DNA of 64,000 nt from the NCBI GenBank assembly GCA_963924565.1, contig OZ004609.1, forward strand, positions 9,548,001 to 9,612,000, read 5' to 3'. The translations under genes were made by a program, and so were the position numbers. This stretch comes from Ascidiella aspersa. Taxonomy: Eukaryota. Below, piece after piece: positions 629 through 64,000 of the stretch. The notes beneath the pieces are model-generated. The model saw only the letters and a list, made by a program, of their open reading frames with translations, did not search any database and was not told where the DNA came from. How positions within the stretch are numbered: the first letter of the stretch is position 1; every line of letters starts with the position of its first letter.

Positions 629-739
629 CTCCTGTATGTCTCTGGCTTTCTTCGCGTCATCTGCATTGTACCGGTTGCAGTTGTACCAAGAGGCGCCATG
701 CGGGTCCCAAGCGCCCAAACATACCCAGCAGAACTCGTG
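629..739 (-). CDS. ARIH1: ARIH1 exon 9 (end of RING2)
   Basis: 111 nt, [37 protein letters not shown]. Confidence 0.95.
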
Positions 740-19847: not shown

Positions 19848-21546
19848 ATGACGGTAAGTGCAACATCAAACGTTTACTATCCATTAAAAAGATAAAAACT
19901 TAAAAAAAAAAAATATATATGGACATTTGTTGCATGGTTTATTTGAAAATGTAGACATTTGTTCTGTTTTTCAGGTACTTGTATTTTGTATATCTGACAT
20001 TATATATCACTACTGTATTCGCATTACGCACCTATAGTTTAAAATATTCGAATTAGTTATTCGTAACTGTTATAATTGCATTTATAGGACCCGTTCGACC
20101 CTGTTGAGGCTGCAAGTCTCCCGGATGAACTTGTCTTTCCAACCGACCGAGCTAAGACTTCCAAGGTAAGACCGGGGCATGTTTTACAAATATTTTTTCC
20201 ATGTTTTTATATAATAACTACGATTTACGACACATATGTCATTTTTTTGATACAAAAGAATCCTTACCGCTTGTGGTCGAGACTATTTGTATTGTGACAT
20301 CACAAATGAAACTTTTTGCTGTTATTTTGCTATATTAATTTAATTTGTGCCATAACTGCATTGATAAATCCTTAAATATGTATTGTTTGTTTGTGACTGA
20401 CTACAGTTTTAATTTAATTTGGGTCCTTAAAGTGTTTTACCCATGCCATGGAAGTTTTTCAGCGTTGACATCACACAGCTACGTCATAAGGTGACATTTA
20501 AATTTAAAACTGAAAAACTGACCATAAAAAAGTAACCGGATGAACATCACACAGTTCGTTTATTTGGTTAAAGTTTTTGATTGTACAGGTGTGACTTTTA
20601 ATACAAAAGTTATAACAATGTAATCGATTAGCCATTAGTGCAAAGCGCTAAACGCCGCATTTGTATCGTTTAAGTTATCCAAACTTTATTTTCGATGTCA
20701 CAATAGGATGTACGACTAAACGATTTTATAAAAATGGAAAGAAATCCAGAAACTTAAAAGAGTCGTAGTTTTTTTTTTAATTTGCTTAGTTGAAATAGGC
20801 AAAAACTACAGTTTGGGGGGTGGGGCATTTCCAGGTACCCCCCACCCTGGATCCGCCCCTGCAAGCTACTGAAAACACTAATAAACCCGGTGCTGATGTT
20901 GTAATATCGCCCACTACTCTAGAAATATTTAAAAGGCCGTAAAAACATTCATCAGCTCACTTTAAGATAGACTTTTTTGACGCCCACCACAGTCGGAAGA
21001 CATTGTTGGGCCGAACCAATTATTATCTATTTATTAGGAAATTAGCAAAGTTTGACCGATATCCAACTTGTGTAGCGTTTTATTTGTGTTGATAGACGCA
21101 CAATGACAACAGACCTATAGGCATATATCACTCAGAAGCAGGGCTTTTAAGAGTTTTATTCAGGGACCGGAAAAAACATATTTTAGAACAGTTTTTCTTA
21201 GCCTTTTTACGCGGTGACTCAACTATGAATGCGTAAAATTATATTAGCAAAGCTTCGGCCACTCAGTTCCCCCACACTGAAAAATTTAGTAAGCGAACAT
21301 AAACATACAAAATTATCAATAATAGTTCGAATTTAATTGATATGACCAAAATTAAGTCGCGACCCTGAGAAAAACTCCTTTGGACCGAATATCAGCGAAA
21401 TATAAAACTTAAAAGATCCTGGCTATAAGCGTTGGAAATATTTATTTGATTTTGGTGGCTATCTTTAGAAGTCCTTCGATTCTGGTGAAGCAGTTGGTCT
21501 CTCGGATCAACTTGTCTTCATGGCAGACGAAGCTCAGCCTTTAAAG
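19848..21546 (+). CDS. 5' module A of the giant gene: start exon (ATG ACG, 19848-19853) plus 78-nt exons 20088-20165 and 21469-21546
   Basis: ATGACG|GTAAGT; exons encode DPFDPVEAASLPDELVFPTDRAKTSK and KSFDSGEAVGLSDQLVFMADEAQPLK; paralogous to module B. Confidence 0.72.
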
Positions 21547-27500: not shown

Positions 27501-30500
27501 TGAGCTTTGCATGCGCAAGATCAATATAAAACCGTAAAACTAAATTATGTAAATTTTAAATTGAATTTACTAAAAACGTTTTCCCGGATGACTCATTTCC
27601 TCCTAACTTTATGCACGAAGAACCGTTGAGTTTTTTAATTTAAGCTTGCATTTTGAAGAAAAAATATTGGCAGATAACTTACCATATAGGTTATTTCAAA
27701 AAGGGTTATTTGTGAAACCATGCTGCTGTTGTGTCAATACTCAATCTCCCTAACAACATCACTATGCGACGCACTCCAAAACTGAAACGATGTAAACTAC
27801 TAGGAGGTCGCAACGCACAGTTAAAAAACCTCTGGCTTAAGGCTTTATTTTGAATAAAAAGTTTTGTAGAATAACTCAAATAACCGCAATTATTTGCAAA
27901 TCTCGGCTCAGTTTCAGTTAAATGTCGATTTTTTGATGGACACCACACACCTGGAGCTTTCATAAGGGTTCTTGCAGAATGTCATAGTATGCCGTAACTT
28001 TGGGACATCATCTTTAAAAATGTTAATGGTCCCCACCAGGGTTTTTTACCCATGCAGTGGTGCTCGCACGTCCAAGAGGTGCAAGAACTGTTCTAAGGGG
28101 GTGCGAGGGTGCTGAATCAGACAGAAAATGTATTAGCCTACTGTAACTTATTTTTTTTGTTCGATAAATGTAGAACTACCTCCCATTTGGTATTGTGTTG
28201 CTGCGTTATCAATGCTTTTACTGTGTTATTATCAGTTGAATAAAATTACATAGGTTTTTTTATTTAAGAAATTCTAGAAGGGGGTGCGAGAATTTGGTTG
28301 GTGAGTTGGTGATTTGAAAGGGGTGCAGCAAGGGAAAAGGCTTGCCTTAAACAAAAGACTGAACCCACATCAGTTTTACTGGTATCGTTAAGGGGTTCTT
28401 CAGTAAAACCACAAAAGGACCACACATCAAAAAGGTTGGGAGCCACTGGACTATATGGTTTCAAACTGGGGTCGTACAATAAGTTGTAGGTGCCATAAGT
28501 GGGGTTACAACCTCACATACATATTATATAACGCTTAATAATGTCAAACGTGAAGGTTTGCTAGTTATAATAAAGCAACTGAAATCTATAGACTCAACAT
28601 TTTGGCAGTCTTATACATGAAAAATAAACTTCTGTGACGATACAATTTACATTGTGACGTCATAGTAAATCAGTTGCCCACAGCAATTTTTTTTTATTAT
28701 TTGTACTTTTTTGCCTTGTTTACATCGCAAAAATCTTGTTGGCGAACATTTTGTTCAAAAACCTTTGTAAAATCTTCCGATTTTATCGAAAACCCTGCGA
28801 AATCAAGTCTGTTATGACGGTAAGTGCAGCTTAACCTTTTCGTTTTGATTTCAAAGGTTAAAATAAAAAAAAAAATGATTACCACGTGGGATATTTCCCA
28901 GATTTTTTTAAAGTTAGTCAAAACACAGCATCTAACTAACTTGCTGGTTATGTCTACAACAGTAAGGCGTCGATATATAGATACTTATGGTTGATATGGT
29001 TATTCGTTAAGACAAATTACCTTTTTTAGGACCCGTTTGACTCTGACGAGGCTGTTAGTCTCTTGAATCAACCTGTCTTTCTAACCGACGGAGCTAAGTC
29101 TCCCAAGGTAAGAGTGTAATTTAACATATTTCGTTTTACTTTATATTGTAAATAGTTACTTTTGTGTTTCGTTGTGTAACAAATTGATGCCTTGCGCTGG
29201 TACAGGGTTGGTCTTGCCTTGGTCATAAATTAACTGCGCAAAAGTACGCCATTAAAAACTTATTTATTGTTACGTCACAAACGATTTTTTGTTCCTAGTT
29301 GGAAGTTTGTTAATTATGTTTTTTGAGCCACTTTTTATTGTTTACATCGCAAAAACTTGCTGGTAATCCTCAGTTTGGAAATATTTCATTATTATTTTAC
29401 ATATTTTCCAAAAGTTTGCTAAACCTCGCCTGACAAGAGCCAAAAAACACTTTAAAATGACACCTAGCTCGGAGATTTGCTGCAACGAAGTGACAAATAA
29501 CGAAGTGAAACATTTCCATGGAATTTAATTTAATTACAAACATAAACAAGCATTGATAATGTTGTACAGCAGGGTGTTGTTGTTCACCCCAAAAAAGTTA
29601 CTATGGGTAATAGTTGGTCGCACGTTTGTTTAACCTTGTATTTTAGAAGCTGTTTGGGTCTGTTGAAGACTGCGGTCACTTAGATCCACCAGCCTGCCTT
29701 ATGGATAAAGCCCATTCTTCCAAAGTAAGCAAATACATGTGTTGCAAACTGTGTTAACTGTAAAATGTTTTCATGCATGTGTAAAAACACAACGCGACGC
29801 ACTTACGGGCCATTTTATTCGAGCAGGGTTACCTTAATAAGGTAATATCAGGTAAAATTTGAGAACTTAAGTATAATACCACTGTAACTCTATTGATTTC
29901 TTAAGAGGCTTGTTAATACAAGACTGTAATACTGTCTTTTATCACTAAACGCAACTAGGCAATAAAAAATGCAACTATAAGCAAATAAATAATAAGCAAT
30001 ACTTAATGCAACTAAGCAAAAAAAAAATAAGCAATGCTATAATATCAATGTCGATACCGCGGGTATCGTTGCTTGTACAAGACGATACAATATCAAAATA
30101 AATAGGTATTTCAGCTATGTTTTACGTTCAATGCAGCTTTCTATACTATGAATTACAAGGATTTTGTTCAATTTTAACAGTTATTTAATTTTATTACTGA
30201 CATTATCGGTATCGGACAAGACTTCCGTAATATTTCACCAATTATGGAATAAAATATATTTATATTAATATGAATTTTTGCTTCTTATTTGATCCCGTGT
30301 TGCATTATTCGTTGCATGCCGTTATATGTTGTTGATTTGAAACAGTGTTTCTTTATTTCGCGGCGCCCAAACGCTAAGCGTAAGTATATAATATATAATC
30401 TTCTTCACTGAACTTTTGTAACACAACAGAAATAAAAAAAATAACTGCTGTAAACGGCGATCCAACAAATAAAGCGGCCTGTTGGTTGAGAAAGACTGTT

Positions 30501-33500: not shown

Positions 33501-36500
33501 TAATTAGCAAAGTAATTATATTGGTTGCTATATCTGCAAACTAAAAAACGAGGCAATTTTACATTGGAAAGGATACCGTGTCACCCCATGCAACATTAAA
33601 ACAAATACAACACAGGCCGGCCCCAAAAAATAGTCCGTTACATTTGTGACATACACTACTACGGACCTATTCTCTATATAGCAGGGGTTCTTAAACTTTT
33701 TTTACAGCGGACCCGTAAATTTTTTTTGCCTCTCGTCGACCATAGTAGGCAAAAAAATTAAAAAATTACGTCATAAATTTGCGTCGCAATCCAAATAGAC
33801 TTCATAAATTTGCTGATTTTGGTCCAAAAATTGGCAAGTGAAATGGAGTCCAATTACATTCAGTGAAAAAACATTTTATTTACAATTAAACTGTCTTCTT
33901 TGATAAATTGAATAAAATGAGTAAAATAAATAATATTTCAATTAGGCCTTCAAGGACCCCTAAAACTAGTTCACGGATCCTCAAGGGGTCAATGGACCCC
34001 AGTTTAAGAACCCCTGCTCTTTACCCTTCGTATTTACCCTTTGTCAGTTGTATATCCCAGCTTTGATCTGGTATGCACTTGGGTCTACCGTATACCCGGT
34101 TAACGATCACTGGGCTACATGTTTTTCATTTTTATTTAATATCTTTGATGACTGAGCTATGAGCCAGCGTACTAAACAGGTATTTTTAAACTGACTTAAA
34201 TACCTCATATTATTTTCGACACAACCTATAAGTCCAATTCAAATCCCTGGTAAAAATTATTTTGTCAAGTTCCAGTACAAGTCATTACATAAAAATAAAA
34301 CGTTGGAACACCGACGCGGTAAAATATTAAAATTTGGTAAAAATCGTCCAATTATGAGCAATAACTCAACTAAAAAACATCAAAATCACAGCAAATAGCA
34401 AGCAAATTGTTTTACGTGCAAAAGTTTAAAGAAATTCGGTTTAATAGAAACACATAATTTTAACCATGACTTAAGTCCGAGTTGTTTATTTGTTAAAAAT
34501 ATTTAAGTCAAGTCAAGCCATTTTTAACTAGTGACTTAACGCACTTCGTCAAGTCATTAAGTCAAGTCATTCCGACACTGATATGAGCGTTGTATGCGAA
34601 AGATGAATGCAAAATAGTAAAAATTAGATGAAACACTCGGCGCGCCCAAGTTTTTTTTAATGACCGTCATGCGTAACTTAGTAAATGTAGTAATATGCAA
34701 AAACAAGCTAAAGAGGACGTTTTTTATAAGATACGGCTTGAAGAACATGGACCAAAGTTAATTAGACAAATGAGTGTTCCAAATTTTTGCCAGGTTGTCT
34801 TATTTTGCTTAACTTTTTACACTAAACACAGTTTTCTGGCTTAAGTTTGTTTTACCTAGGCTTTCCCTGCCAAGGAAATAATTTTGCAGATGGTTTGACT
34901 TCGACTTTGGTTATAGGCTATTTCAAAATATTGTCTTATAATACTGGTTCTTTCCATTTAAAAAAATCTACCTATTACCCAACAGTCTTACTTCGAACTT
35001 TATTGTCCTTAAAACGCTCTCTTTGAATGTTATTGTCTGTCTTTTAAATTAATATATAATGTAATCTGCTCGACTGTATTTTAACTGCTATTTTCCAACT
35101 GTAGCCATACCAGTTATTAGATGATTTGTGCGGCCACATGGACAATACTCCTTTGTTATCGATAAGTGACATAATCGAACAATGTGCGAATCTTTGTTAT
35201 GTGCTTCATTCTTAACGCCTCGCTGTAAATAAAAAAATGATTAAACCAAATAAACGGATATGACCAACGTTCAAATTAGGTAAAATAAGGGGTTCGTGCT
35301 TAATGACATAATAAGACGTAACTTCGTGACGTAATTTGTCAACAGTTTTATGCTCCCACCAAAAAAAACACGCTGACATATAACTTTACTTGTTTCCTAA
35401 GAGGGTTCACAGCTCACAGCTCTTAGTCAAACCATAAAAAAGCTCTATCACATTAAAAAGGTTGAGAACCAAGTCTGTTAGTGAGATACAAAAATGTTAT
35501 ACCATTTAAACAATATTTTCGCATTTATAAGCATAATAACGATGTTTTGTTACTCCTATACCTTGCGTTCTTGCTACGCTTTAAATGTCGCAATCATATT
35601 TTGTAATCACCCGCTTTACCATTAAGGGTTTAGCATTGCTACCTGGACATCCGATAGAATATTATGTAATAGCGACTAAGGGGACACAGCTAGACAAATT
35701 TCTACATTTTCTTTTGTAAATTATTGTGCTTGTTGCAACGGTAATTACTTTATCATTTCGGGGACAACGTGAGAAGTCCAAAAAAAAAATATTTCAGGGC
35801 GACATTATGCTAAAATGAAAAATCCCATTTTCTACCTGAGCGCTTTCGGCATTTTCCAAAGTAATATTACAAAAATATAGTTGTGGTAGTTTGATTACAT
35901 TTTACAAGTCTAGAGAAGTAAATATCTGGCTATATTATATATGAACTTTCAACTCCATTTTCTTTGTACGTCTCGTCAAAGCAGTGGCGTGCATGATTAA
36001 CACGTCCTAATGTAAATCCACACGCATGAAAAAATAACGCCCAAACGTAATGCATAATGCCGTTAAGCTTTGATTCCAAATCTGTGTTTTGTTACTTGTT
36101 TCACCGAGCGGACCTCCTTTCCTTCCTTGTACAATTAGTAACCCATTACATTTAAAGTCTGAAAAAGTCACATTACTTTAAGATGCACATAAATGAGAGA
36201 ATAAAGCCCGAGCTAAACTAATTTAATAATGTATTTAAAAGTTATTGAGCGGCCATCATCGCTAAGTATATACGCTGATTCCAGTTTGATTACATATACT
36301 GTTTTAAGTGTTGCTTCTTTAATGTGTATGCCCAACATGGATCATTACTTACATTACAGGGCTCTCCCTCTGGTTCTGCTGAACCTCTGAACATCCAGCT
36401 CACCACCAGCGTTGAGGTAAGTTTTAACGTGATGGTAATTGTTAATAGTGCTGTATTATCCCCACCTTATCCGGAACTCCGAAGCCGTAACTTACTTTAA

Positions 36501-48500: not shown

Positions 48501-51500
48501 GCAAACAGACAAAAGTGCAAGTCCTTAAATTGAAAGAAAAGAAACTGGAATCGCCCAAAAAGTCACTAAATACTAAAATAGCAAAGGTAAAATAAAGCAA
48601 CACATTTTACATTGTCTCAGTAGTATTTTGGTTTTGAATTTGCCCTTAGGTAATTTGACTACACAGTGCAAAGTCATACTGCTATAAACGTTTTGCAAAA
48701 TGTATATTATATTTTTTAAGATTCCGCAGAAAAGTGACAATGAGGTGAAAGAAGTAGCATCACCTTGCATTACAAAGGTAAATCCAGTTGGATTAATGTG
48801 TTGTACCTTGGCTAGCAAAATGTAATTTGAAAACGCATGTAACTTGGGCATTTCTTTAGAAGCCTGTTGAAAAAGATGTGAGTTGACATTACAGCATATA
48901 ACAATATTTTATTTTCCTCAGGTTATCGGGTACATTTGTACGTTTCAGTAATCACGCGTTTTTTGTTTAGGCGTATACCTTATGTGAACATTTATATATA
49001 TATATTTCTAAAGATTTATTTATTCAATGTAGTTCGTTGCAAACTATCGCGAGGGTAGTTTTTTATGTTTCACTTTTATTGTAGGCAAAACCTCAAAACG
49101 ACCGCTCTGCCTTCGAATATACCTTCAAGCCCGGTGGCACTTTTTGGTCCCAAAATGAAGTGGTCTCGGCCGGCAAAAAGGCTTTTGTGAGTCTACGTTT
49201 TGTTTAAATGACAGTTGATAGCTTTCAGTTGTATACAAGTAAATTGCGAATATGATGAACCTTTTTATATAACAAAAATACTCCATTGTTGCTGTAAATG
49301 TTTTTAGTGTTTTGAAGCAACAAACAAACGTTTATCAGATTGAAATGACAACAATAACTTTGATTTTACAGTTTTTAAAGTCACGTTTTTTTATTCGTGC
49401 TTTACAAGGGACGATTGCGATAAATCATTTTTTTCCCAGTCTGGCACCAAATTAGGTTTCTTTAATATAAAAAATACTTTGTCAGTAAATTCATATCCAA
49501 GATTACACGCGAAACACACGACATTATGCAGTTTGGCAACGTATACGACGTCTATTTTTCCTAGCTAACGAAGCCACCATGACCGAATTATCACGACAAA
49601 ACGAATCAGCACTTTAACAAAATCATAATGCGGCGAATTTTAGACACCGCCACCTTAAAACAATAATAACTTACCCTTCAAATCGAAACGGGAATATTTG
49701 TTTTTCGTCCATTCAGGCCAACTCGCGAAGGTTGCCGGAACCCCCCGCGCCAACCAACAAAACTAAAGACGAAGTTCTGGCGGAAATTACTCGAGCCGCC
49801 GAATTGAAAGTACAGTCTTGGCTGGAGGCAACCAAGTCGGCCATCGAGACTGGAAAAGCGGACGCGGAAATGCGTTTCAGTCTGACTCAAGACGCTCCCG
49901 GAAACTCGGGGCTCGTTCAGGACAAAATCAACAACGAAAATAATTTACCCAACGGCGCTGAAAATTACTTTCAAAGGGCTGGCAACTCGAAGGAGTTTGA
50001 CCTGATTTGCAGCGAAATGATTTTAAATCCTGTTAAGCAAACAGCAGACCACGGAGTTCAGGAAGCTCTATTATCTTTGCCAGTTGCAGATAACAAAGTT
50101 ACCGAACCTAAAAGTCGCAAATTGAAGCCGCGTGTTGCCGCCCTTGCTTCTGGTGAAGACAAAACGTCATCCACTAATGATGAGGACATGTCGAAAGATG
50201 CTGGCGATAGTGAAAAGCTGGCATCTGTAGAGGAGCCAAGTCAAGTGGCCTTGCCTCCGTCGGACGCAGTACTTGAGAAAAAATCTCCCACCTGCGAATT
50301 TGATGAGACTAAGCTCCGCTCTTCGAAAAGCCTTCCACAAACCCACGCGTCACCAAATCTTTGCGATGAGAAACAAGGCAAGGCGCCTTCGAAATCCAAA
50401 CTTAACCCCAAAAGAGCTTTGGTGAATGAGCTTAAAGCAGAAGCTGCAGTGGCCCAAGAAAATGGCGAATCAGAGCTTAGCAGCGACGCATCGGATTCGG
50501 AAAGCGCAAGCAGCAGTGATAGCGCACCAGGCCATGACGTTGCATTGCCCAAGCAAGTCGCCAATGACCCAACGACAAAGAGTCGAGGTTCTCTTGGCGC
50601 TAAAAACACTGCAAAGGGAAAGAACGACGTCAATTCAGCTGCCGTCAAGCCGAAAATCAGCGAGGAAGGTCAATCTTGTGGCGACCCCGGAACAGCCGGA
50701 CAGAAGCCTATAGTCAAAAAATCAGCCGTAAGTTGGTTTGGTCTCTCAATTATGCAGTTTCGTTTATAACCAGTATGCAGGATTTTAAGCAGAATGTAGA
50801 CAAGCATTGGACGTGCCAAGGCAATTTTTTTATCAGAATGTGTGTTTAAATAGGTCTTTGTATTTTAGTCCGCTGAAAAAATAATTTGTGCTTTGTTGTT
50901 ACATCATGTTTATTGTTTTTATTATTCACAGAATTCGCTGACTTTGCCAAAAAAGAAAAAACGCAAGACCCCATTTTGGCGAAAGGTAATTGAGATTCCA
51001 TAAAATATAGTTGCCAAGCTCGATTTGTTTGAAAGCAACATTTTTTTATTGGAAAAGCACACTTTATTTTGTTAACTCAGGCTATATACGATATTAAAAT
51101 AGTAATTTGACTGCGGTTTATTTACCTAACGCTGCGTTGTGTTGAATAGCCTTTTATTTGTCTTTATAGTCCAAGCTGCTTAACCTTAACGAGGACAACA
51201 AAAAAACGGAAAAGCCTAAGAAAAAGGTAATTTTAAATATATCTATATTTATTTGTTTAATGTTTTTATATTTGTTCGTGTAACTGAGTCGTTGTATGAA
51301 TGGCGTTTGGATCATCACTAGGGATTTTTCTTTCTTACTATTTGCCTACAATTTTTCAAACCCAATAAGTTCGAACCATAATTGCTATGTTCACTTTATT
51401 TTAACAGCTACCGTGGAACTTCGGAATCAATAAGAAAGTTGACAAGCTGCTTGCAGAAAGGGTGAGAACTTGAGATAATGCTAAAGTTTATATCTTAAAG

Positions 51501-54500
51501 CTATCCAAGAATACCGTCCAGCGAGAATTTAGCTTCAAATTCTCGGTGGTGTGAGTTTATTTTCCTAATTTTAGTGCAAATAAAACATGTTGTCATAAAC
51601 GAACAAACCGAAAATTGGCACGTCACTAATTGAACGAAGGCGCAAAGGAATAGCGTTAACGGCAATACTACTTTTCGTTAGTGGTACACCAATTCAAAGA
51701 GTTGAAGGTGTAAACCTTTTATCTTGCGCCCTTATCATGTGACCACACTGTTTGAATTCTTATTTTATCCGATATTGTGTGTAATAAAATAAATACTTTC
51801 CTATCTACTAGTACAGGGGTCGGCAACCTTTTTTGCACTGGGACCGGTTTAAAACTAAAATTTTGTCGCGGACCGGCCTTCAGAAAACAACAAATGTTCA
51901 GGAAAGAAAAAATAATTACAACTTTCAATACGAACTTTATGCTTGTTTTGCCGCAAAGAGATGCTCCCATCTAAGAATTATTGAACTTACTGAAACCCGC
52001 GAGCGGCATCAGGCCAATCAAACAATTTAGTTTAACCCAGCCCGCGGCTCATTTCAATAAAACTTTTAGGCTTTTACGTTTTTTCTTAAATTACACTGGT
52101 GTAACATAATTACCAATTCCTATATTCTTACCAGCTTCTCAAAATAAGGATATTTAAGTTCGTTTTTCAACAAAATTTTAATCTTACAACCCTGCTACGG
52201 ACCGGCGCTTACCGACCACGGTACTAGTAGACTTTAATTTAAAAAAAATTCGAACAGATTAAAGTTTTACCGAATCCTGACGCGGACGACGTCGAATCGC
52301 CGAGAAATACATCTTCTGCCAAGGTTTGTGTTTTATCAATAATTTAAGATAGTAAACCTCCATTTAATTACCGAATCAAGTCTCTAATTTATAATTTTCT
52401 TATTAGTGTGATATCATGTCAGTATAATAAAATACTAATGTAATTAAACTAAAAATTTATCTTAACAAATAAAATCCAGTTTTATCGGTTGGTCATTGGT
52501 TACAAAATTACTTTCCGCGACATATTTCCTTGTTAAAGATAAGGTAGCCTCTAGTTAAAATGTCATCAAATGCGATTTAAAACTAAATTTTAATAACATT
52601 GTAAACAGTAGGACAGTTTTTTAAGGCTCACTACAGATTTTACTGCAGAATTATTTTTATTTCATTTATTTAACGTTACTTAAGTAGTAAAGTTTGGCGA
52701 AAATTGTTTTATATCCGCCCCGCGATAGACAGGGCGTGCAGCGATTTGGTTCTTTGTGAAAGGTTTGGTGGCCCCTTGGTTAGTATATGTTAAGATAAAT
52801 TCGGTTTTTATAAATATATTTTTATCAATTTTGTTGTCGCGTTCATTAGATCCCCTGGAAGTATGGAAAAGCAGATAAAGCTGAGTCTCCTCGCCTGGCA
52901 AAGGTAATTTTAATTTTTGTAATTTAACGTTTAAATAACTATACCGAGTCTAAGGTTTACTGATTTGTTTTTCGCGACATTAATTGCAGTTTCTCAAAAA
53001 CGTAAATCCAAATTAAAACGCAATTGGCTATTGTTTTATTTAGTTCACCTATTTTTGGAATTAACGTAGAACGTGGTATGTAGTGGTATATTGCTATAAC
53101 GTCAAACAAGTCGTATTTTTTTGCTTTAAACCATTGTGATTTGAATTAATTTTAAAAAAATCCTTGAAAAAATTAAAGTTCATGGACCTGCACTCAATTA
53201 ATAATACGACAATGAAATCAGACGCCACTAAAGTTTGTATCTTATAAAGCAGTGGTTCTTAACCTTTTTTTGCCGCGCCTTTTTGGTAATTGCCCTGTGC
53301 AATTGCATTACGCCCTCCTTAGATGGTAAATTATTATCATATTTCAAGAAATTCGGTATTTTTCGAATAATAGTACAAGCACCTGCGACAAAGTGTAAAT
53401 AAGTCTTATATTAGCAGGAATATAAGATTTTGACATATACTCGGCATTTTTTAAGTGCGACCTCATTTAATGTTGGTGTGCAAAATGTTGCACTTATGTG
53501 GGTAGGAATTGGCGGTAAAATTATAAATCTCGGGAAGAACGTAGTTTTCTAAACAATTGAAAATCTATTTGTACAATGTTCTTAATTGCAAGACTAACTA
53601 CATTTATGAGTTTGATACCATACTTTTGTTTGTTGGAACTCAAAAATCAATTCTTGTATTGTTGTCAAAATTAGTTTTGTTAAACCATCCAACTCTCCGT
53701 TTGACGTAATTAGGAGAAACTGCTGTAGTTTAAAACTTAAACTTTTTTACCTTATAGACAAATTCGTCGAGTAAGGCGAAAAATGGCGGTGATGCAAAAT
53801 CGTCAAACGTCAAACCGGAAAATTCCAATTTGAACTTGGAGGTCACGGCAATGGACGCCGAACGTCGCTCAAACGACCCAAAAAGCGAAGACAACAAAAG
53901 TGTCTGCTCGGATGTCGACATAGACGACGTGCAATCTGAGATGTCCTTTGCGGAATACGCGATGCTGCCACGTTTTAACGTACTGGGAGCCATAAGCGGA
54001 CTCCAAGCCGAAACCAGCAAGCACTGCAAACAGTCGTGGAGCAACGCGCTGCCGAAGCCTGCTTACTTGTACATGCCTGTGCTTGGTTTGGCGCAACCAA
54101 TGAACTTATCGGACGCTGAATCAAACATTGAATATCCAGTTAAAGAAGCTTCGGCGAAAGCTGAGGACTCAAAGGATGCTGAAACCGACTGTGACTTGGA
54201 GTCGCTGTTGCAGTCTGATCACTGCAACTCAGACGGAAACTTGGCTGAAATGGAATCGGAAACGTGCGATTTTGGACAGAAGCCGGCCAGAAAACGTCGC
54301 TCCGTTTTGAAGCGTGCGACCAAATTGAGGAGACGCGCACCGGACTCGGATGAAGACACATCCGATTTTGCCGAAGAGCTTGAATCGTCTAAATCTCTTC
54401 ACCTTAGAAACAAACTAAACTGCGAAAGCGAAACAAAGCGGTCGGCAGATGAACCAACGCACAACACAGAGGAAAAAGCTGAACTGCACTTGGAACTGAG

Positions 54501-57500
54501 TAGCGAAGAAACAGATTTGGAATCCGAATGCTGTGATCCAACCCCGAATGGGGAAAAACCTAGCTCGATTGAAGCCAAAAATGACATATTTAAAGTGAAA
54601 TCCATCAGTAACCTACCCTTATTGAAGGCTGGGCTCTCTGAACAAGATAGTTCCACTTCCTTCGAGTCGAACCCGGAATCCAGGCAAAGCGCCCGGCCCT
54701 CTTGCGAATCGTCGAGCCTCAAAGAAATCACGACGAACCTCAAACAGCGCATGCGTAATGACGTCATCAGGGTGGCCGCCGTTCCTGTCCACCGGTCGAC
54801 CAAACGCATCACCAGCACCAGCACACAAACCGTAAGCTGGAACGTCGACCTTCGCCTTCTTTATTTGCGTTACACCCACGTACAGTTTTATATAGGGACG
54901 TTTGATACTTGTCATGTTGATCCGATACCCGATATTTTACACCAAAAGTAGTAAAATACATGAAATTGAAGTCAAACGTTAATAGTTTTCTGCATTAGGC
55001 CAAAATTTGCTGTGTTAAGACATCCAACTGCAGTTTTATGTATTGCTTTACGTAAAGCTAACCAACTTTAGCATATACTAACATGTTTGCAAGCAGTATT
55101 ATATCTTGCCTGTTAAGTTATTTATTTTCACAAGTATAGAAAAAACGTTTTTACACTTAGACATAAAAGAACCACAAATTTGTGACAATATGCGCGTTTA
55201 ATTGCTTTTTTCTTTTTTAGACTTCGCTGAAGTTTGGCCGCGGAAAAGTCTTTGACCCATCACCTTCAAGAAAGGTAACGACCTTAAGTATAAAGTGTTG
55301 CGTTGCTGCACTGAATATGTGAATAATAGAAATCACCTTGACCCTTGCAAGATAAATGTCGACCTTAATTCCTGATCAGTAACAGCAAAATAATCTAGCA
55401 AAGCTAGCAATTCAGGTCAGACACATTAACCAGATCTTAAAAAGATATATATATATTTCGCCAACTAAGGCATCGTCAGTATATCTGAATAAACGCAACA
55501 GTATAACAATGAGTCAGAAAACATTAAAGTTTAAATAAAAACGGTGTTTGTGCCGTTATTTTGCGTTGCCGCGTTTCTCTCGACCCGTTCTTATTGCTTC
55601 TGTACAGGGGTTGTACAACTTGGATGCCATTACTATTTAACAGCTTTTATATTTTAGTTATTTTACTTTGTTTTATTTAAACTTTAATGTTTTCTGACTC
55701 ATTCTTATACTGTTGCGTTTGTTTTTATTCAGATATACTGACGATGCCTTAGTTGGCGAAATATATATATATCTTTTTAAGATCTGGTTAATGTGTCTGA
55801 CCTGAATTGCTAGCTTGGCTAGATTATTTTGCTGTGTTGCGTTGCTGTCAGCATATCTCGTTGTTTTCTAATTTCTAGTTCAATTTGCACAACGGATGGC
55901 AATTTTTTGAGGTAACACAGACTATCTTCAAGGTTAATTTATTTACAGGTTAAACCGCCTGATCTGATTGAGTCCGAAAACGAAAACACGGAAAACCCCA
56001 GCCGAAAGCAAACTGTAAGTTATTTGTTTTTATTTGCTTTCAAACACCATTATATAAACATTTTGTCTTAGGTTGTGAGAAATGTTTCAAATACGTTGTA
56101 TGTGTATTGTGATGCACAATTTAGCTTATTATAAATTGGGTTCAGTGTTTGTATGTACATTGTACAAGAATTGCGCAACAACTTCTCTGATTTGAATGTT
56201 TTATTTGTTTTCATAAAGATTGAGATCCCCATGTGTGGGACATATACATAATATGTGATCTACTAAAGTTGTTATTAAGCTTTTTAGTGTCATTACCACT
56301 AAGAAATTAGTACTATTTTGTTTATTATTTGGTACTATTTTGTCATTTATAAACTGAATCACACCTTTTAGAATAATTGCAATCACATCTTTTCGAATAA
56401 TTCGGTTCCTATCGTTGTAACTCAGTGTTCATTATTTATAAGTATTCAATTCTGTCGTCGATCATATCATTGTTCATATGGCTTTGATCAAAGTCACTTT
56501 TTAGTTCACATTTTTATTTTTTGTTCATTCCTTTTTTGTGTGTTTCAACAGTTTCCCTTGAAGCACGGAAAAGTGATTAAAGTGGCTTCTTCACTACCTG
56601 TGATGGTAAATTTTAAACAAATATTTTTCCATAAATTTAGAAATGGCGCACCACGACGCTATATGTATAACCTATTTAAGTTTCAGTGAAAGTGACACTT
56701 AGGTAACAATAACCATCAGCCAAAGTAATGGGTATCTTGAAACACCCCTTTGGTTGTAGTGTATATAAGATCCAATCGTTTCATTGATAATCTCAGTTAA
56801 CAATTGTATTTTTTCTTGTGGAAGAGACATGCCGTACTGCTTTAGTTATTCGATTAAATTTCTCATATTGGTTAGGTATAGGTAAAATCAAAGAACGTAT
56901 TTTTTTCTTCAACAAGCTTTTAACAAACAATATGCAATTTACTGTACGCCAGTCAATGCAAATGCCTGCGTTAAGTTTATACAAAAGGTTAACACATCCA
57001 TAAGGTCCTTTCGGGTATTGTAAAGCTTAAACAGTGCGCTTAGCAGCCAAAACAAACATAAATTACAACTATATAAGAATCGTTTATGCCTCTCGACAAG
57101 CACGTATGCCATTTTAAGTCCAAAATCAAAGATGGCGCAGGTAAATATAACCCCTTGTTATCGTTTTTGTTTTCAGACAAAGTCTCCGAAAAAATTAAAC
57201 GCGTCTAGTCAGTCTGCAAAAGGTAGATACACAGAAGGCAACGAGTGGCAATCTGGAGATCCCAAAGAAACGCACGCTTCTGTTGGCAGAAGTAGCTCGT
57301 CGTACGATGCAGCTGAGATTAAGTTGGTCGAATCGGTAGACAACCTGATTCTGGAGAAAGAAGCTGAGTTGTCACGGTCCGCTGAGTATGCGTCTAACGT
57401 CACATGTGACGTGGTAGAAGCGGGACCTTCCGTCGAAGGCAGAAAGGAGCAATCTCCCATCGGCAAAGAGTGCCTTTCGGTTGTCGAAATTTTAGTTGAA

Positions 57501-60500
57501 CAGGCTGCGACCCAATTGAGTTCGGAATCTATTTCGCAAGTGAAAACCCCTTCTGGCCACGATGGCGTTTTGAATGTTGGAGCTGACGAGGTCCAACCAC
57601 GAGATAAACCGCTTCGCGAGGATGCTTCGCTTTTGGTCGGAGATCCACAACCGGTCGAGTCCGATGTGGCTGAACTGAACTCGGAACCTGATGGCGAGAC
57701 CCTTTTCAGCATTGATGGGTTCTCGCAAGTCGGAGTTGAAAGGGTCATGCCAAACGACGGTCCAGTTCATGAAGCGTCGCAACTGGATTCGAACCTGTTC
57801 GTACCTAACACAAACGAAGTGAACTCGGATTCCGCTTTTAACGGGGAGACCTTATACGACATTGATGGCTTCAACGAAGTCGGAGCCGATTTGGTTGAAC
57901 CTCAAAGTGAACCGGTTCATGAAGTTTCGCAGTTGGTTAAGGATCCGGAGTTAGCTGAAACGAATGCAGCCGAATCGAATTTGGAGTCCGGCTTAGAAGT
58001 GAAAGCCACGCACGGCATTGATGGCACTTCGAGTGTTGGAGTCGATGTGGTCGGAATCCGAGCCCACCCGGTTCGAGAAAGTTCGCAGACGGACTTGAAG
58101 CTAACTGCACCGAAGCGCGCCCAACTGAAGTCGAGATTAATCTCGCATGGGGAGAATCTACTCAGCCTTGATGACGATTCTAATGCCGGAGTCGAAGGGG
58201 TTCATCTGCCAGTGGATACGACTCAAGGCAAATTGCAGTCGGTTGACGAAGCCAAGTCTTCCGAAACCAGTTCAACTGAACCGATATCCGAACACAACTC
58301 AAACGTCACAGCTCCTGTTAGTAACTACGTCACAGCTCCTGCTAGTAACGACTTCACAGTTCCTGCAAGTAGCGACGTCACAGATCCTGCAGGTAACGAC
58401 GTCACAGCTCCTGCTAGTAAGGACGTCACTGCTCCTGCAAGTAACGACGCCACAGTTCCTGCTAGTAACTACGTCACAGCTCCTGCTAGTAACGACTTCA
58501 CAGTTCCTGCAAGTAGCGACGTCACAGATCCTGCAGGTAACGACGTCACAGCTCCTGCTAGTAACGACGTCACTGCTCCTGCAAGTAACGACGCCACAGT
58601 TCCTGCTAGTAACTACGTCACAGCTTCTGCTAGTAACGACTTCACAGTTCCTGCAAGTAGCGACGTCACAGATCCCGCAGGTAACGACGTCACACCTCCT
58701 GCTATTAACGACGTCACTGCTCCTGCAAGTAACGACGCCACAGTTCCTGCTAGTAACGACGTCACAGTTCCTGCAAGTAACGACGTCACAGCTCCTGCTA
58801 GTAACGACGCCACAGCTCCTGCTAGTAACGACGTCACAGCTCCTGCAAGTAACGACGTCACAGCTCCTGCAAGTAACGACGTCACAGATCCTGTAAGTAA
58901 CGACGTCACAGCTCCTGCAAGTAACGACGTCACAGCTCCTGCAAGTAACGACGCCACAGTTCCTGCAAGTAACGACGTCACAGCTTCTACAAGTAACGAC
59001 GTCACAGCTCCTGCAATTAACGGCGTCTCAGCTCCTGCAAGTAACGACGCCACAGTTCCTGCTAGTAACGACGTCACCGATCCTGCTAGCAACGACGTCT
59101 CAGCTCCTGCTAGTAACGACGTCACAGTTCCTGCAAGCAACGACGTCACAGATCCTGCAAGTAACGACGTCACAGTCCCTGCAAGTAACGACGTCACAAC
59201 TCCTGCTAGTAACGACGTCACAGCTCATGCAAGTAACGACGTCACAGCTCCTGCTACTAACGACGTCACAGCTCCTGCAAGTAACGACGCCACAGCTTCT
59301 GCTAGTAACGACGTCACGGCTCCTGCAAGTAACGACGCCACAGCTTCTGCTAGTAACGACGTCACAACTCCTGCCAGTAACGACGTCACAGCTCCTGCAA
59401 GTAACGACGCCACAGCTCCTGCTAGTAACGACTTCACAGCTCCTGCTGATAACGGCGTCACAGCTCCTGCAAGTAACGACGCCACAGCTCCTGATAGAAA
59501 CGACTTCACAGCTCCTGCAAGTAACGACTTCACAGCTCCTGCTAGTAACGACGCTACAGCTCCTGCTAGTAACGACGTCACAGCTCCTGCAAGTAACGAC
59601 GTCACAGTTCCTGAAAGTAACGACGTCACGGCTCCTGCAAGTAACGACGTCACAGCCCCTGCTGATAACGACGTCACAGTTCCTCCTAGTAACGACGCTA
59701 CCTGTTGCCTCACGGCGAATACCGCTCACTCATCAGAGGCAAATTCAGCAGCTATCGGCCTTTCGCAAGAGATGACAAACCCACACCCAGCGGCTGGTTC
59801 TAACAGCGACCAATCGCTCCAAGAATCAGAGCTGCCAATCCACAATTCAGCCGAATTCGACGAATTTTCGTGCGGCGAAGCGACAGCCGATAACGCAGAA
59901 TCTATGGGGTTATCGGTAAGCTGCTGCACTTTTTAAACTTTCAAACGATTTGGTGAAATGCTTACTTAAGGGCCAGTTTATATCTATATGTCAGCTATTA
60001 GTTCGGTTCAAGTAGTGTTTTTTAGCAGCTATATGCCAGGGTTGTTGTTTTATTTTAAGAAGCTGTGTAAGCAATTTTCCAGCGAAGTGCTTACTTTTGG
60101 CTGAACATATATGTTAACTTTTGTTGCAGTAAAATTTTCCCGACTCTTATAAGTAATGTCTGTCACACAAACCAACTTTAGTTTTCAGGGCTTTTAAACC
60201 TCGTGCAGCTTTTTTATGTTAAATAACTATAAATTTGTTCGCAGGACCAAACCGATTTTTTCGACAAACGGAAGAATATCGATGCTGCTTTTAAAAGATT
60301 AAACGTAAGTGCATGAATATTAGCGTAACAGTAAATATATGTTGCACGCAAAGCCGCAGCGACCATTAGCACAATAATCTTGCTGTTAAGAAAATCGACA
60401 ATAAGTTGATTTGATTCAATTTAAATAACGTAAAATATATGTTAAGAAATCTGATTACGGCGTTTTTTTTCAGATGTCCAACTTGTTCAAACAGGTAAGC

Positions 60501-63500: not shown

Positions 63501-64000
63501 TTACCAAACTGGGGTCATGCACTGAGTTTACAGGTCTTGAGAAGGACGCACGAACTTCACACAAAGTCCTACTTTTATACAAATTGTACTTATATTGACT
63601 TTCGATTGGCGTATACCTCTACTAATGCAAAACGCATTTCTTCAACTGAGTTGCACACTTTTACACAAAGTTTAATGGAAACCAATATTGCTTTTATTTA
63701 GACAAGCGTGTGTTAAATTTGCACTTCACTCAGAGACACGACTTTAGGAAATCGTTATTCACTAATTTTTCTACCCAAACCGTTCGCGCGTTTGCGCTTC
63801 GAAAGCCTAAGCTGTGCCGGCCACGTTAAGGACGCAGTTCTATTTTTTTCCTTCGCTCGTTTGTGCTTCTCCTTATACGTGACAAATAGAACTTCTACTT
63901 AGTCAACAAGTTCCGATTTACAGAACGACCAAGAGGATGAAAATGAAACAGAGTTTGGCGACGATGACGAGGCAGAAGCCAGAAGGCTCTGGTTGGAAGA
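19848..64000 (+). CDS. Giant uncharacterised low-complexity, repeat-built protein (>3000 aa, ~54 phase-0 exons, 3' end beyond window)
   Basis: A chain of stop-free AG..GT segments, GC-richer than their flanks, each a multiple of 3 and many mutually paralogous. Summed coding length in the window is about 9.06 kb by hand count. No recognisable folded domain. A single transcript is inferred, not shown. Confidence 0.78.
22991..23482. mobile_element. hAT MITE with TTAGATTAGAATTAG repeats
   Basis: TIR CAGACATGGACAACTAGAT / ATCTAGTTGTCCAAGTCTG; perfect TSD GTGTGTAT. Confidence 0.88.
27093..27485. mobile_element. AAGTCA-rich MITE-like repeat (relatives at ~34230-34578, ~26850-27008, ~12570-13326)
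   Basis: Shared ATGAGCAATAACTCA..TAGCRAGCAAAYTGTTTTAC core and AAGTCAAGTCA subterminal repeats. Confidence 0.55.
28652..28665 (+). promoter_or_regulatory. CRE-like TGACGTCA palindrome ~160 bp upstream of start exon B (variant copies at 19682, 20292, 29267)
   Basis: TTGTGACGTCATAG; the equivalent position in module A reads TTGTGATGTCACAA. Confidence 0.4.
28814..29724 (+). CDS. 5' module B of the giant gene: start exon (28814-28819) plus 78-nt exons 29030-29107 and 29647-29724
   Basis: ATGACG|GTAAGT; exons encode DPFDSDEAVSLLNQPVFLTDGAKSPK and KLFGSVEDCGHLDPPACLMDKAHSSK. Confidence 0.75.
30728..31096. mobile_element. MITE with CCGATAC/GTATCGG repeats (related copy at ~37380-37789)
   Basis: TAGGAATGTCCGATA .. 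TATCGGCCATTCCTG; no clean TSD. Confidence 0.6.
33682..34016. mobile_element. hAT MITE (multi-copy family in this window)
   Basis: TIR CAGGGGTTCTTAAAC / GTTTAAGAACCCCTG; internal sequence aligns with 42787-43097 and 25819-26110. Confidence 0.82.
36360..41573 (+). CDS. One 57-nt exon followed by a tandem array of 14 paralogous ~33-37 codon exons
   Basis: Exons 36360-36416, 37248-37355, 37840-37971, 38039-38149, 38215-38325, 38778-38876, 38954-39049, 39143-39232, 39306-39416, 39491-39595, 39670-39768, 40596-40706, 40775-40873, 40946-41056, 41463-41573. Consensus T[ND]QP....S.....S.L..L.EN.P...Q..DS.LL; most end in TTG/CTG|GT. Confidence 0.82.
40149..40250 (+). pseudogene. Dead copy of the array exon (pseudo-exon)
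   Basis: IKQAMVSSKCPDFIKFALSLSNNQSFQPNDSGPM matches the array consensus but is flanked by TCAA (not TCAG) and CTAAGT (not GTAAGT). Confidence 0.65.
40412..40570. repeat. Fold-back interspersed repeat built of ~20-bp GAATAAGACCTAAAT units (relatives at ~3849-4265, ~8640-8765, ~24225-24345, ~25250-25410)
   Basis: 40414-40465 aligns with 3849-3900; the right half carries the reverse-complement units. Confidence 0.6.
42255..45022 (+). CDS. Giant-gene exons 42255-42413, 42589-42675, 43565-43684, 43762-43863, 44678-45022 (acidic)
   Basis: 159, 87, 120, 102 and 345 nt; all AG..GT and open in phase 0; overlap listed ORFs 42177, 43508 and 44684. Confidence 0.8.
42787..43097. mobile_element. hAT MITE (same family)
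   Basis: CAGTGGTTCTTAAGC .. GTTTAAGAACCCATG; perfect TSD TGTTAGAC. Confidence 0.87.
45491..45717. mobile_element. Second palindromic Penelope-like remnant with two degenerate hammerheads
   Basis: Inverted arms 45493-45607 and 45631-45716 contain CCCTGACGAAG..GCCGAAACGTT (minus) and CCCTGAATAAGGC..GCCGAAACGTT (plus). TATCGTT at 45484 and 45718 is a possible TSD. Confidence 0.62.
46623..49186 (+). CDS. Short Lys-rich exons of the giant gene
   Basis: Exons 46623-46748, 46929-46976, 47084-47149, 47454-47507, 47610-47690, 47965-48021, 48509-48586, 48721-48777, 49085-49186; examples RPWNFGINKKVDPKLSVK and LTKVQATDLKEEKIESPRKSSAAKKAL. Confidence 0.8.
49717..50727 (+). CDS. Large internal exon (337 codons, S/E/K/A-rich, disordered-looking)
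   Basis: TTCAG acceptor and GTAAGT donor; matches ORF 49732..50769. Confidence 0.88.
50932..52903 (+). CDS. Short basic exons 50932-50985, 51170-51226, 51408-51461, 52258-52323, 52850-52903
   Basis: NSLTLPKKKKRKTPFWRK; SKLLNLNEDNKKTEKPKKK; LPWNFGINKKVDKLLAER; IKVLPNPDADDVESPRNTSSAK; IPWKYGKADKAESPRLAK. Confidence 0.8.
51814..52221. mobile_element. hAT (Charlie-like) MITE
   Basis: CAGGGGTCGGCAACC .. GCTTACCGACCACGG; perfect TSD TACTAGTA. Confidence 0.82.
53758..54831 (+). CDS. Large internal exon (358 codons, acidic/Ser-rich with basic patch RKRRSVLKRATKLRRR)
   Basis: TATAG acceptor and GTAAGC donor; matches ORF 53830..54951. Confidence 0.88.
55221..56605 (+). CDS. Short exons 55221-55274, 55949-56014, 56552-56605
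   Basis: TSLKFGRGKVFDPSPSRK; VKPPDLIESENENTENPSRKQT; FPLKHGKVIKVASSLPVM. Confidence 0.75.
55443..55486 (-). ncRNA. Minimal type I hammerhead ribozyme (identical copy, opposite strand)
   Basis: Exact reverse complement of 55731-55774. Confidence 0.82.
55731..55774 (+). ncRNA. Minimal type I hammerhead ribozyme
   Basis: Helix I AGAUAUA/UAUAUCU; core CUGACGA (55738-55744); bulged U; helix II GCC-UUAGUU-GGC; GAAA; palindromic AUAUAU in place of helix III; predicted cleavage after A55767. Confidence 0.82.
57177..59915 (+). CDS. Giant internal exon (913 codons) with ~50-aa repeats and an NDVTAPAS VNTR
   Basis: TTTTCAG acceptor and GTAAGC donor; matches ORF 57132..59936. Confidence 0.9.
58302..59702 (+). 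repeat. Coding 24-bp minisatellite, ~58 units (AACGACGTCACAGCTCCTGCWAGT = NDVTAPAS)
   Basis: Directly visible tandem array, with a 144-bp higher-order unit starting at 58323, 58467 and 58611. Confidence 0.97.
60245..64000 (+). CDS. Downstream small exons, including 21-nt and 24-nt microexons; last exon truncated by the window edge
   Basis: Exons 60245-60304, 60474-60494, 61221-61280, 62049-62072, 62146-62226, 62508-62570, 62940-62984 and 63924-end give DQTDFFDKRKNIDAAFKRLN-MSNLFKQ-TLLNSNITIGARQLLLDRLG-VKKTLKKK-GPPKGNLRIKFCEKITKCLFQHESSIE-DIHINEIVEECDCYLEDKVPA-KYQNSELERCKLLDM-NDQEDENETEFGDDDEAEARRLWLE. Confidence 0.75.
61582..61704 (+). mobile_element. Short retroposed pLTR fragment with a hammerhead motif and 16-bp TSD; same family as the 45.5 kb element
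   Basis: TATATACTCTTACCTG at 61566-61581 and 61705-61720. Contains CTGACGA-A-GGCGACTT-GCAC-AGGTTGCC-GAAA. The 3' part aligns with the reverse complement of 45493-45556. Confidence 0.7.

Follow-up and report, generated by a model that had tools for sequence, protein, structure and literature searches.

The 64,000-nt stretch of Ascidiella aspersa DNA analysed here (the window) holds, from position 19848 to its end, what is best explained as one expressed, single-copy gene with about 60 phase-0 exons. It would have been built by the gain and loss of whole exons, is likely spliced mostly constitutively, and encodes a predicted, largely disordered and probably nuclear scaffold of ~3,500 residues. 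We give this reading a probability of roughly two in three.

The gene model comprises 63 exons, 58 of which start in the window (57 of these are complete), and the gene ends ~3.7 kb past it; after the exon starting at 63924 come five more exons, the stop and an intron in the 3' UTR (Table 1). The original prediction gave the same exon lengths (6–2739 nt in the window) and a count of ~54, but had the gene stop at the window's end. Counted from the second ATG, in the exon at 28814, 60 exons separated by 59 coding introns encode 3,523 aa with no internal stop. All 59 introns are phase 0 in the model, with RNA support for 12 of the 15 predicted 3' junctions, and the complete coding exons all have lengths divisible by 3 and an open frame 0, as had been claimed. 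The more than 3,000 aa predicted are reached inside the window, where reading from the ATG exon at 28814 gives 3,058 aa and including the 19848 block brings the total to 3,112 aa. The exons at 45803 and 46929 were detected via RNA coverage.

Table 1. Features of the window and the evidence for each.
Feature	Position	Strand	Evidence
ARIH1, divergently transcribed neighbour	629..16988	-	PDB match E 8e-26; IBR domain; exons
First 5' block: ATG exon 19848-19853; family-A exons 20088-20165, 21469-21546	19848..21546	+	sequence only
Second 5' block: ATG exon 28814-28819; family-A exons 29030-29107, 29647-29724	28814..29724	+	predicted from sequence
Three 0-0 exons: 36360-36416, 36788-36829, 37248-37355	36360..37355	+	RNA depth ~9
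Diverged family-B relative	37248-37355	+	nhmmer E 1e-6
Family B: 13 tandem copies of an acidic exon of 90-132 nt	37840..41573	+	RNA depth 9-20
Truncated dead copy of the family-B exon, carrying an 8-nt insertion but an intact acceptor	40031..40107	+	nhmmer E 1e-5
Dead family-B copy; both splice sites gone (AG->AA, GT->CT)	40126..40260	+	nhmmer E 9e-12
Seven single-copy 0-0 exons, starting at 42255, 42589, 43565, 43762, 44678, 45803, 46623	42255..46748	+	
Lysine-rich region, 18 exons	46929..56605	+	RNA depth 4.5-13
2739-nt exon	57177..59915	+	donor spliced to 60245 in 13 RNA reads
Nine small exons, 21-81 nt, 144 residues	60245..62984	+	RNA joints
Start of predicted 903-nt acidic exon	63924..64000	+	

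Exon boundaries had earlier been chosen by eye with the frame in mind, a caveat that frame-blind scoring now removes. Trained with 123 donor and 137 acceptor sites of unrelated genes, a splice-site matrix selected the model boundaries in 60/60 exons within ±15 nt and in 56/60 within ±30 nt, where 57 were still 0-0; the test bears on where boundaries lie, not on which exons were chosen. An artefact of frame-aware picking is thereby ruled out as the source of the boundaries. Of 138 intronic AG..GT pairs of comparable kind, only 11 combine an open frame with a length divisible by 3. In control introns of myosin, kinesin and HECT genes from the same genome, phase 0 occupies 44 of 74 distinct positions (~59%), with a share of 0.54–0.61 across the unfiltered (81/150) and strict (23/38) sets. 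Given this background, the all-phase-0 layout exceeds chance (P ~0.002 for 12/12 introns, ~2e-6 for 25/25), and a genome-wide phase-0 bias as the entire explanation is rejected on the figure for 25 independent introns.

All-against-all alignment groups the exons into four or more duplicated families (sizes 4, 13, 3, 4 and 2 exons), in agreement with the at least three foreseen, while 24 of the 57 small exons are singletons with no detectable duplicate, among them the majority of those in the nine-exon ordered region. Family B is the most informative. Its tandem copies differ in length by 6–21 nt, always in multiples of 3, and in the copy at 39143 the ancestral AG has been lost and a new AG 21 nt downstream is in use, so that the frame is kept. 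Two further copies are dead, both lying outside the nhmmer training set. In one DNA run, seven family-B exons were without any contig. Tandem copies, the doubling of the 5' block, dead copies and an in-frame acceptor shift bear out the proposal that the gene grows by exon birth and death.

Whether this symmetry also serves splicing was approached with a single RNA run, of which 6% was read (depth ~10), with coverage examined from 36.3 kb to the gene end; exon skipping confined to other tissues, or to less than roughly a quarter of transcripts, would go undetected at this depth. Depth is even on one strand over that range, placing expression on the + strand, with 4.5–19.7 reads per exonic base in 20 repeat-free bins. 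It is reduced to 4.5–5.5 at 46972-48305 and drops again in the last two large exons, where GC is 58–64%; neither dip is taken as a finding. From 59915 to the last exon, 12 of the 15 predicted coding junctions are among the RNA joints listed, 8 of them in the window, and 3 are absent among them. Eleven of the 12 sit exactly at the predicted GT..AG; the remaining joint skips the predicted length but is placed 3 nt to the left. The best 15 of 17 RNA joints in the 3' third comprise 13 that connect consecutive exons and 2 repeat artefacts, and even a 21-nt exon has its joining supported by 17 reads where depth is 19. Between 36.3 and 56.3 kb, the 15 joints listed of 226 are DNA-run repeat joints, with no RNA joint visible among them.

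These data bear on the possibility, which we consider unlikely, that selection maintains exon symmetry so that exons can be skipped in many combinations, giving numerous isoforms in certain tissues or stages. All exons are skippable in frame, the presence of two first-exon blocks points at the least to alternative starts, and the two depth dips would fit; in addition, Schad et al. (2013, PMC3632108) report that in human, disorder tends to be highest in those symmetric exons that are alternatively spliced. The same paper gives 0-0 exons as 22.4% of alternative but 24.9% of constitutive human exons. In our sample, no exon-skipping joint occurs among the best 15 of 17 joints in the 3' third, and the 13 family-B duplicates lie at depth 9–20 in four repeat-free bins versus 8–12 in large single exons, which excludes a one-of-13 choice in this sample. 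Combinatorial splicing as first proposed therefore found no support in this one shallow sample. Splicing is likely to be mostly constitutive, and the phase-0 layout probably records the copying and loss of exons in evolution rather than mix-and-match splicing.

The region after 60245 had been assigned to the same gene, and RNA reads joining 59915 to 60245 and continuing to the stop confirm this. A single transcript starting at 19848, as also assumed, is doubtful because there are two ATG first-exon blocks: 19637-20274 and 28615-29201 share 72% identity (417/581), which suggests that the first block probably either serves as an alternative start or is the remnant of a duplication. It is very improbable that the span as a whole represents two or more separate genes or includes a dead 5' fragment. 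The two ATG blocks, with introns of 7.3 and 6.6 kb behind them, might be read this way, and the junctions from 19.8 to 57.2 kb are those of the model rather than observed joints; no exon before the last contains an in-frame stop, however, the introns hold no open terminal-exon candidate, and the one-strand depth is even from 36.3 kb onwards. Such a reading is plausible only for the 19848-21546 block.

The predicted protein is mostly disordered, as had been expected (FoldIndex, a crude predictor, is <0 in 69% of 51-residue windows). Its N-terminus is acidic, its most hydrophobic 19-mer (residue 79) averages 1.28, and by composition it contains no signal peptide, membrane anchor or hydrophobic segment. 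It has three K/R runs of four or more residues versus 0.3 ± 0.6 in shuffles. The K/R runs, together with the lack of a hydrophobic segment, make a nuclear location plausible, and a role as a disordered nuclear scaffold is likely, judging from composition. Two of the K/R clusters lie in the lysine-rich region, where short duplicated exons (48–102 nt) are interspersed with two long ones, measuring 1011 nt (49717-50727) and 1074 nt (53758-54831). Endocytic, SUMO, LIR, CDK, S/T-Q, PP1 and dynein-light-chain motifs are not enriched relative to shuffles (lowest P 0.06).

The absence of a recognisable domain stands with one exception. Of 28 pieces compared with Pfam, 27 of them from this gene, the only match within the gene was to Cornifin (PF02389; 52 bits, over the cut-off), on a tandem repeat of a 24-nt unit (8 residues, ~58 copies, 58303-59697) in the 2739-nt exon. 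We read this match as compositional and reject Cornifin/SPRR homology; the 374 residues of that exon before the repeat have no match. The nine small exons downstream encode the part of the gene highest in order-promoting residues by composition, possibly a small helical domain that is not a canonical SAM domain. A presumed likeness of 60245-61280 to SAM failed as an assignment: a profile built from 30 own-genome SAM hits gives -1.3 bits, a score reached by 163/1000 shuffles, compared with 11–64 bits for 30/30 leave-one-out controls, and hhalign gives a probability of 0.45%. A divergent SAM-like fold is conceivable for this segment.

Searches returned no homologue for exon 53758 among proteins of 628–2000 aa, for the last exon among proteins of 77–2000 aa, or for exon 49717 in 1.84 billion representatives. 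Two query pieces gave no usable match in the ESM Atlas, one 35-residue piece had none in the PDB, and metagenome contigs contained no homologue of the gene. A positive control, the N-terminal part of ARIH1, likewise returned no match, so the case for orphan status is weak. No paralogue was found elsewhere in its own genome, and the gene is hence single copy; open-licence literature yielded no paper on it or on an ascidian case. Its reading frame is under purifying selection: 36 exonic differences comprise 18 non-synonymous, 18 synonymous and no stop changes (pN/pS 0.30–0.37; P 0.0005–0.004 versus neutrality), in a best-supported subset of 40 of 655 plus 40 of 98 rows from which 44 intronic, repeat or UTR rows were dropped. 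It is quite improbable that the gene is the orthologue of some large disordered protein already known, that it has diverged fast, and that its phase-0 layout comes in part from intron gain biased locally or in the lineage. Single-copy status and constraint would suit this reading, as would the failed homology control, the restriction of the exon 53758 and last-exon searches to proteins of at most 2000 aa, the phase-0 background of 0.54–0.61 and the 3:1:1 intron phases in Ciona huntingtin given in PMC1636649. Against it are the homologue searches without a match and the ~2e-6 for background bias alone, and the exon copies and relics are a direct sign of exon gain. ARIH1, which lies outside the gene and is useful as a synteny anchor, has 9/10 introns in phase 0 (by eye; Fisher P 0.04–0.13 versus controls), and a local or lineage phase bias may therefore contribute.

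Titin PEVK and elastin are disordered regions of short symmetric exons, heavily alternatively spliced and with known mechanical function; neither trait is shown for this gene. Closer parallels come from SCPP genes. According to PMC6732285, the introns of AMBN are all, and those of SCPPs nearly all, phase 0, and their exons are duplicated and deleted; PMC3632108 describes disordered proteins built from symmetric exons via tandem duplication. The present gene shares phase-0 coding introns throughout, a mostly disordered product and frame-safe tandem exon gain and loss. In contrast to SCPPs, which are small secreted vertebrate proteins, its product is 3,523 aa long, is encoded across 59 coding introns and has an N-terminus that is not hydrophobic. 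No sequence relation to SCPPs was found, and family membership is rejected on the absent signal peptide and acidic N-terminus. The gene matches the known all-phase-0 disordered type exemplified by AMBN and SCPPs, as a larger and likely intracellular member. Calpastatin, MAP2 and MBD1, the last nuclear and almost wholly made of 0-0 exons, also show same-phase exon runs, adjacent look-alike exons and high disorder (PMC3632108), whereas the unbroken run here is much longer, both the dead exon copies and the doubling of the start block can still be seen, and there is no known domain. Schistosome micro-exon genes (MEGs) likewise have symmetric exons that are skippable in frame, but as described in PMC4015677 their proteins are small and secreted, micro-exons make up as much as 75% of the coding sequence, and skipping has been demonstrated. 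Here, the median exon is 79.5 nt long, the four exons of ≤36 nt contribute 0.7% of coding sequence and the four of ≥900 nt contribute 54%, and skipping was not seen in the 3' third of one shallow sample. A schistosome-type micro-exon gene is rejected, since very small exons do not make up most of the coding sequence and a signal peptide or membrane anchor is absent.

We hypothesize that the early introns were phase 0, so that any exon to be inserted, copied, shifted or lost had to be 0-0 if the reading frame was to survive, and that the disordered product would have tolerated the resulting length changes. For these two reasons phase 0 may have spread through the gene. The 24 singleton exons could be old copies or exonised intron DNA. 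A more speculative and rather unlikely extension is a cassette gene whose exons can be dropped both between individuals (presence/absence alleles) and between cell types (tissue-specific skipping), which would make it a giant intracellular, 3,500-residue disordered scaffold tuned at two levels.

The mechanism of growth by exon gain and loss has itself been described before; what sets this locus apart is an unusually long and clean all-phase-0 gene in which births, deaths and a frame-keeping splice shift are legible together. It is a good test case for exon symmetry as a record of turnover versus regulated skipping, and the evidence favours turnover. If the gene is truly lineage-specific, it would mean that a constrained protein of 3,500 residues can arise largely by the copying of exons.

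Within a 308.6-Mb genome in 75 contigs, of which the window is part, the giant plus-strand gene and its neighbour ARIH1 are divergently transcribed in a head-to-head arrangement, with ~2.9 kb between the start codons (see table). The exon list of the giant gene was drawn up from DNA alone and recorded ahead of the RNA comparison; offsets in boundaries set by eye were then corrected, three exons were added (two from RNA coverage), and four candidate exons that did not hold were removed. The resulting model has 63 exons, 58 of which start inside the window and 57 of which are complete there, and the gene extends ~3.7 kb beyond the window to its stop codon. Counted from the ATG exon at 28814, there are 60 exons and 59 coding introns, and the 3,523-residue reading frame has no internal stop; all complete coding exons have a length that is a multiple of 3 and are open in frame 0. 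A frame-blind splice-site matrix, trained on unrelated genes and applied to the acceptors and donors, agreed with both in the model for 60/60 exons within 15 nt and 56/60 within 30 nt, and comparable AG..GT pairs inside the introns are seldom both a multiple of 3 and open (11 of 138).

Coordinates of the neighbouring gene, the family-B array and its relic exons
Feature	Window position	Strand	Evidence or state
ARIH1 neighbour	629-16988	minus	PDB match E 8e-26 and IBR hit
Family B (13 tandem acidic exons)	37840-41573	plus	
Family-B relic	intron 39769-40595		both splice sites mutated; profile E 9e-12
Family-B relic	intron 39769-40595		truncated; profile E 1e-5

The gene is expressed, and its 3′ third is spliced consecutively. 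In raw reads of RNA run X3 (same species label, ~6% read), which derive from the plus strand, 17 joints fall on the 3′ 10 kb. The 15 listed include two repeat artefacts and a 3′ UTR intron; the other 12 match predicted coding junctions, of which there are 15 here, three of them absent from the listed joints. Of the 12, 11 lie exactly at the predicted GT..AG, and one has the predicted length and is placed 3 nt to the left. The joint 59915-60245, present in 13 reads, ties the region after 60245, which the original prediction had singled out for homology searches, to the 2739-nt giant exon. The 3′ UTR intron (L001:3679-5063, 7 reads) begins one base past the stop codon, and further downstream a plus-strand multi-exon transcription unit (L001:7800 to L002:2640) shows several AG..GT exons in which no long frame is evident. 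About four sense-strand reads lie at 63091-63424, within the intron after exon 62940-62984, and may stem from a repeat, from RNA that had escaped splicing or from an alternative 3′ end. RNA depth drops to 0-5 beyond the window, across the 3′ part of a 903-nt exon and the next exon (L007:4680-5780), a GC-rich stretch with in-frame GT sites upstream of the drop.

Control phases were obtained by spliced alignment of 90 myosin, kinesin and HECT loci from the same genome, giving a phase-0 share of 44/74 distinct positions after filtering (81/150 unfiltered, 23/38 strict), near the 3:1:1 intron phases reported for Ciona huntingtin (PMC1636649). This otherwise intron-rich genome also carries myosin-head, kinesin and HECT domains free of introns (G000:C6:6282635-6284827, C2:26793436-26794320 and C5:3594583-3595461), which served only as alignment references. 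At the control rate, P is ~0.002 for 12/12 phase-0 introns and ~2e-6 for 25/25, the cautious count of independent introns in the giant gene, whose all-phase-0 pattern is thus more than chance. A local phase bias may contribute, as 9 of the 10 ARIH1 introns within the window are phase 0 by eye, but this share does not clearly exceed that of the control genes (Fisher P 0.04-0.13).

All-against-all alignment of the 57 small exons yielded families of 4, 13, 3, 4 and 2 members, three weak pairs, 24 singletons and one extra weak link, from exon 60245 to the 13-member family; two larger families of lysine-rich exons are our own grouping, for which profile scores are circular. Length differences among the 13 family-B copies are multiples of 3 nt, and in one copy the ancestral AG is gone and has been replaced as acceptor by another AG 21 nt downstream, in frame. 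The family-B profile also detects two relics, neither of them in its training set, and the gene start is duplicated into two ATG blocks, with 72% identity between 19637-20274 and 28615-29201. Copies, relics, acceptor shift and duplicated start support the proposed growth by exon birth and death. DNA run X2 has no contig across seven family-B exons (~37900-39400), where run X1 has ~47-fold depth; this hole possibly marks an exon-number allele, although X2 has further holes elsewhere and holes prove nothing by themselves.

The combinatorial splicing that had also been proposed is not borne out in the X3 sample. No exon-skipping joint is found among the 15 of 17 joints listed for the 3′ 10 kb, and joints to a 21-nt exon are present in 17 reads, where the depth is 19. 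The RNA comparison starts at 36.3 kb, and 36.3-56.3 kb was judged by depth alone, in 20 of 30 bins (nine removed for repeat reads, one without exons) with 4.5-19.7 per exonic base. Depth in the four family-B bins is 9-20 vs 8-12 for large single exons, which excludes a one-of-13 exon choice in this sample; skipping that affects fewer than roughly one in four transcripts, or that occurs in other tissues, would be invisible here.

The protein was expected to be disordered, and 69% of 51-residue windows are so predicted. It starts acidic and has a basic middle; other features are an 8-residue repeat in ~58 copies, a stretch of 144 residues in which order-promoting residues are more frequent, an acidic tract and, at the C-terminus, an amphipathic helix. 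Cornifin, the sole Pfam match above cut-off, falls on the 8-residue repeat; the underlying 24-nt repeat (58303-59697, ~58 copies) leaves several frames open on both strands. What we took to be a SAM-domain resemblance in part of the protein failed against a SAM profile whose controls passed. The C-terminal helix, encoded by the last exon (L001:3547-3675), is the strongest amphipathic helix in the protein (moment 0.73 vs 0.50 for the next) and is possibly a membrane-binding tail. Three K/R runs, above shuffled sequences, and a predicted protein with no signal peptide or membrane segment suggest a nuclear location. The 36 exonic differences listed for the RNA individual (18 non-synonymous, 18 synonymous; pN/pS 0.30-0.37) indicate that the coding sequence is constrained, but loosely. 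The gene is single-copy in its own genome, and no homologues were found in protein, PDB, ESM Atlas and metagenome-contig searches, in which disordered single exons were the queries, part was limited to proteins of ≤2000 residues and the ARIH1 N-terminal exon control likewise had no match.

The phase-0 observation of the original prediction is confirmed and its interpretation partly supported. We hypothesize that the introns of the gene were at the outset phase 0 and its product tolerant of length change, a state in which only 0-0 exons could be added or lost, so that the gene would keep its all-phase-0 structure while growing. Symmetry would then be a footprint of germ-line turnover, and selection for skipping would not be needed. 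Human 0-0 exons are, according to PMC3632108, no commoner among alternative than constitutive exons, and the giant gene resembles the disordered symmetric-exon proteins described there. It also resembles ameloblastin (AMBN) and other SCPP genes, in which, according to PMC6732285, exon duplication and deletion occur and the introns, all of those in AMBN and nearly all in SCPP genes, are phase 0. Membership of the SCPP family was rejected, as was a schistosome-type micro-exon gene as portrayed in PMC4015677, and no published description of this gene or of an ascidian case was found in the open-licence literature. The giant gene is a large case of an already known all-phase-0, disordered, exon-duplicating architecture.
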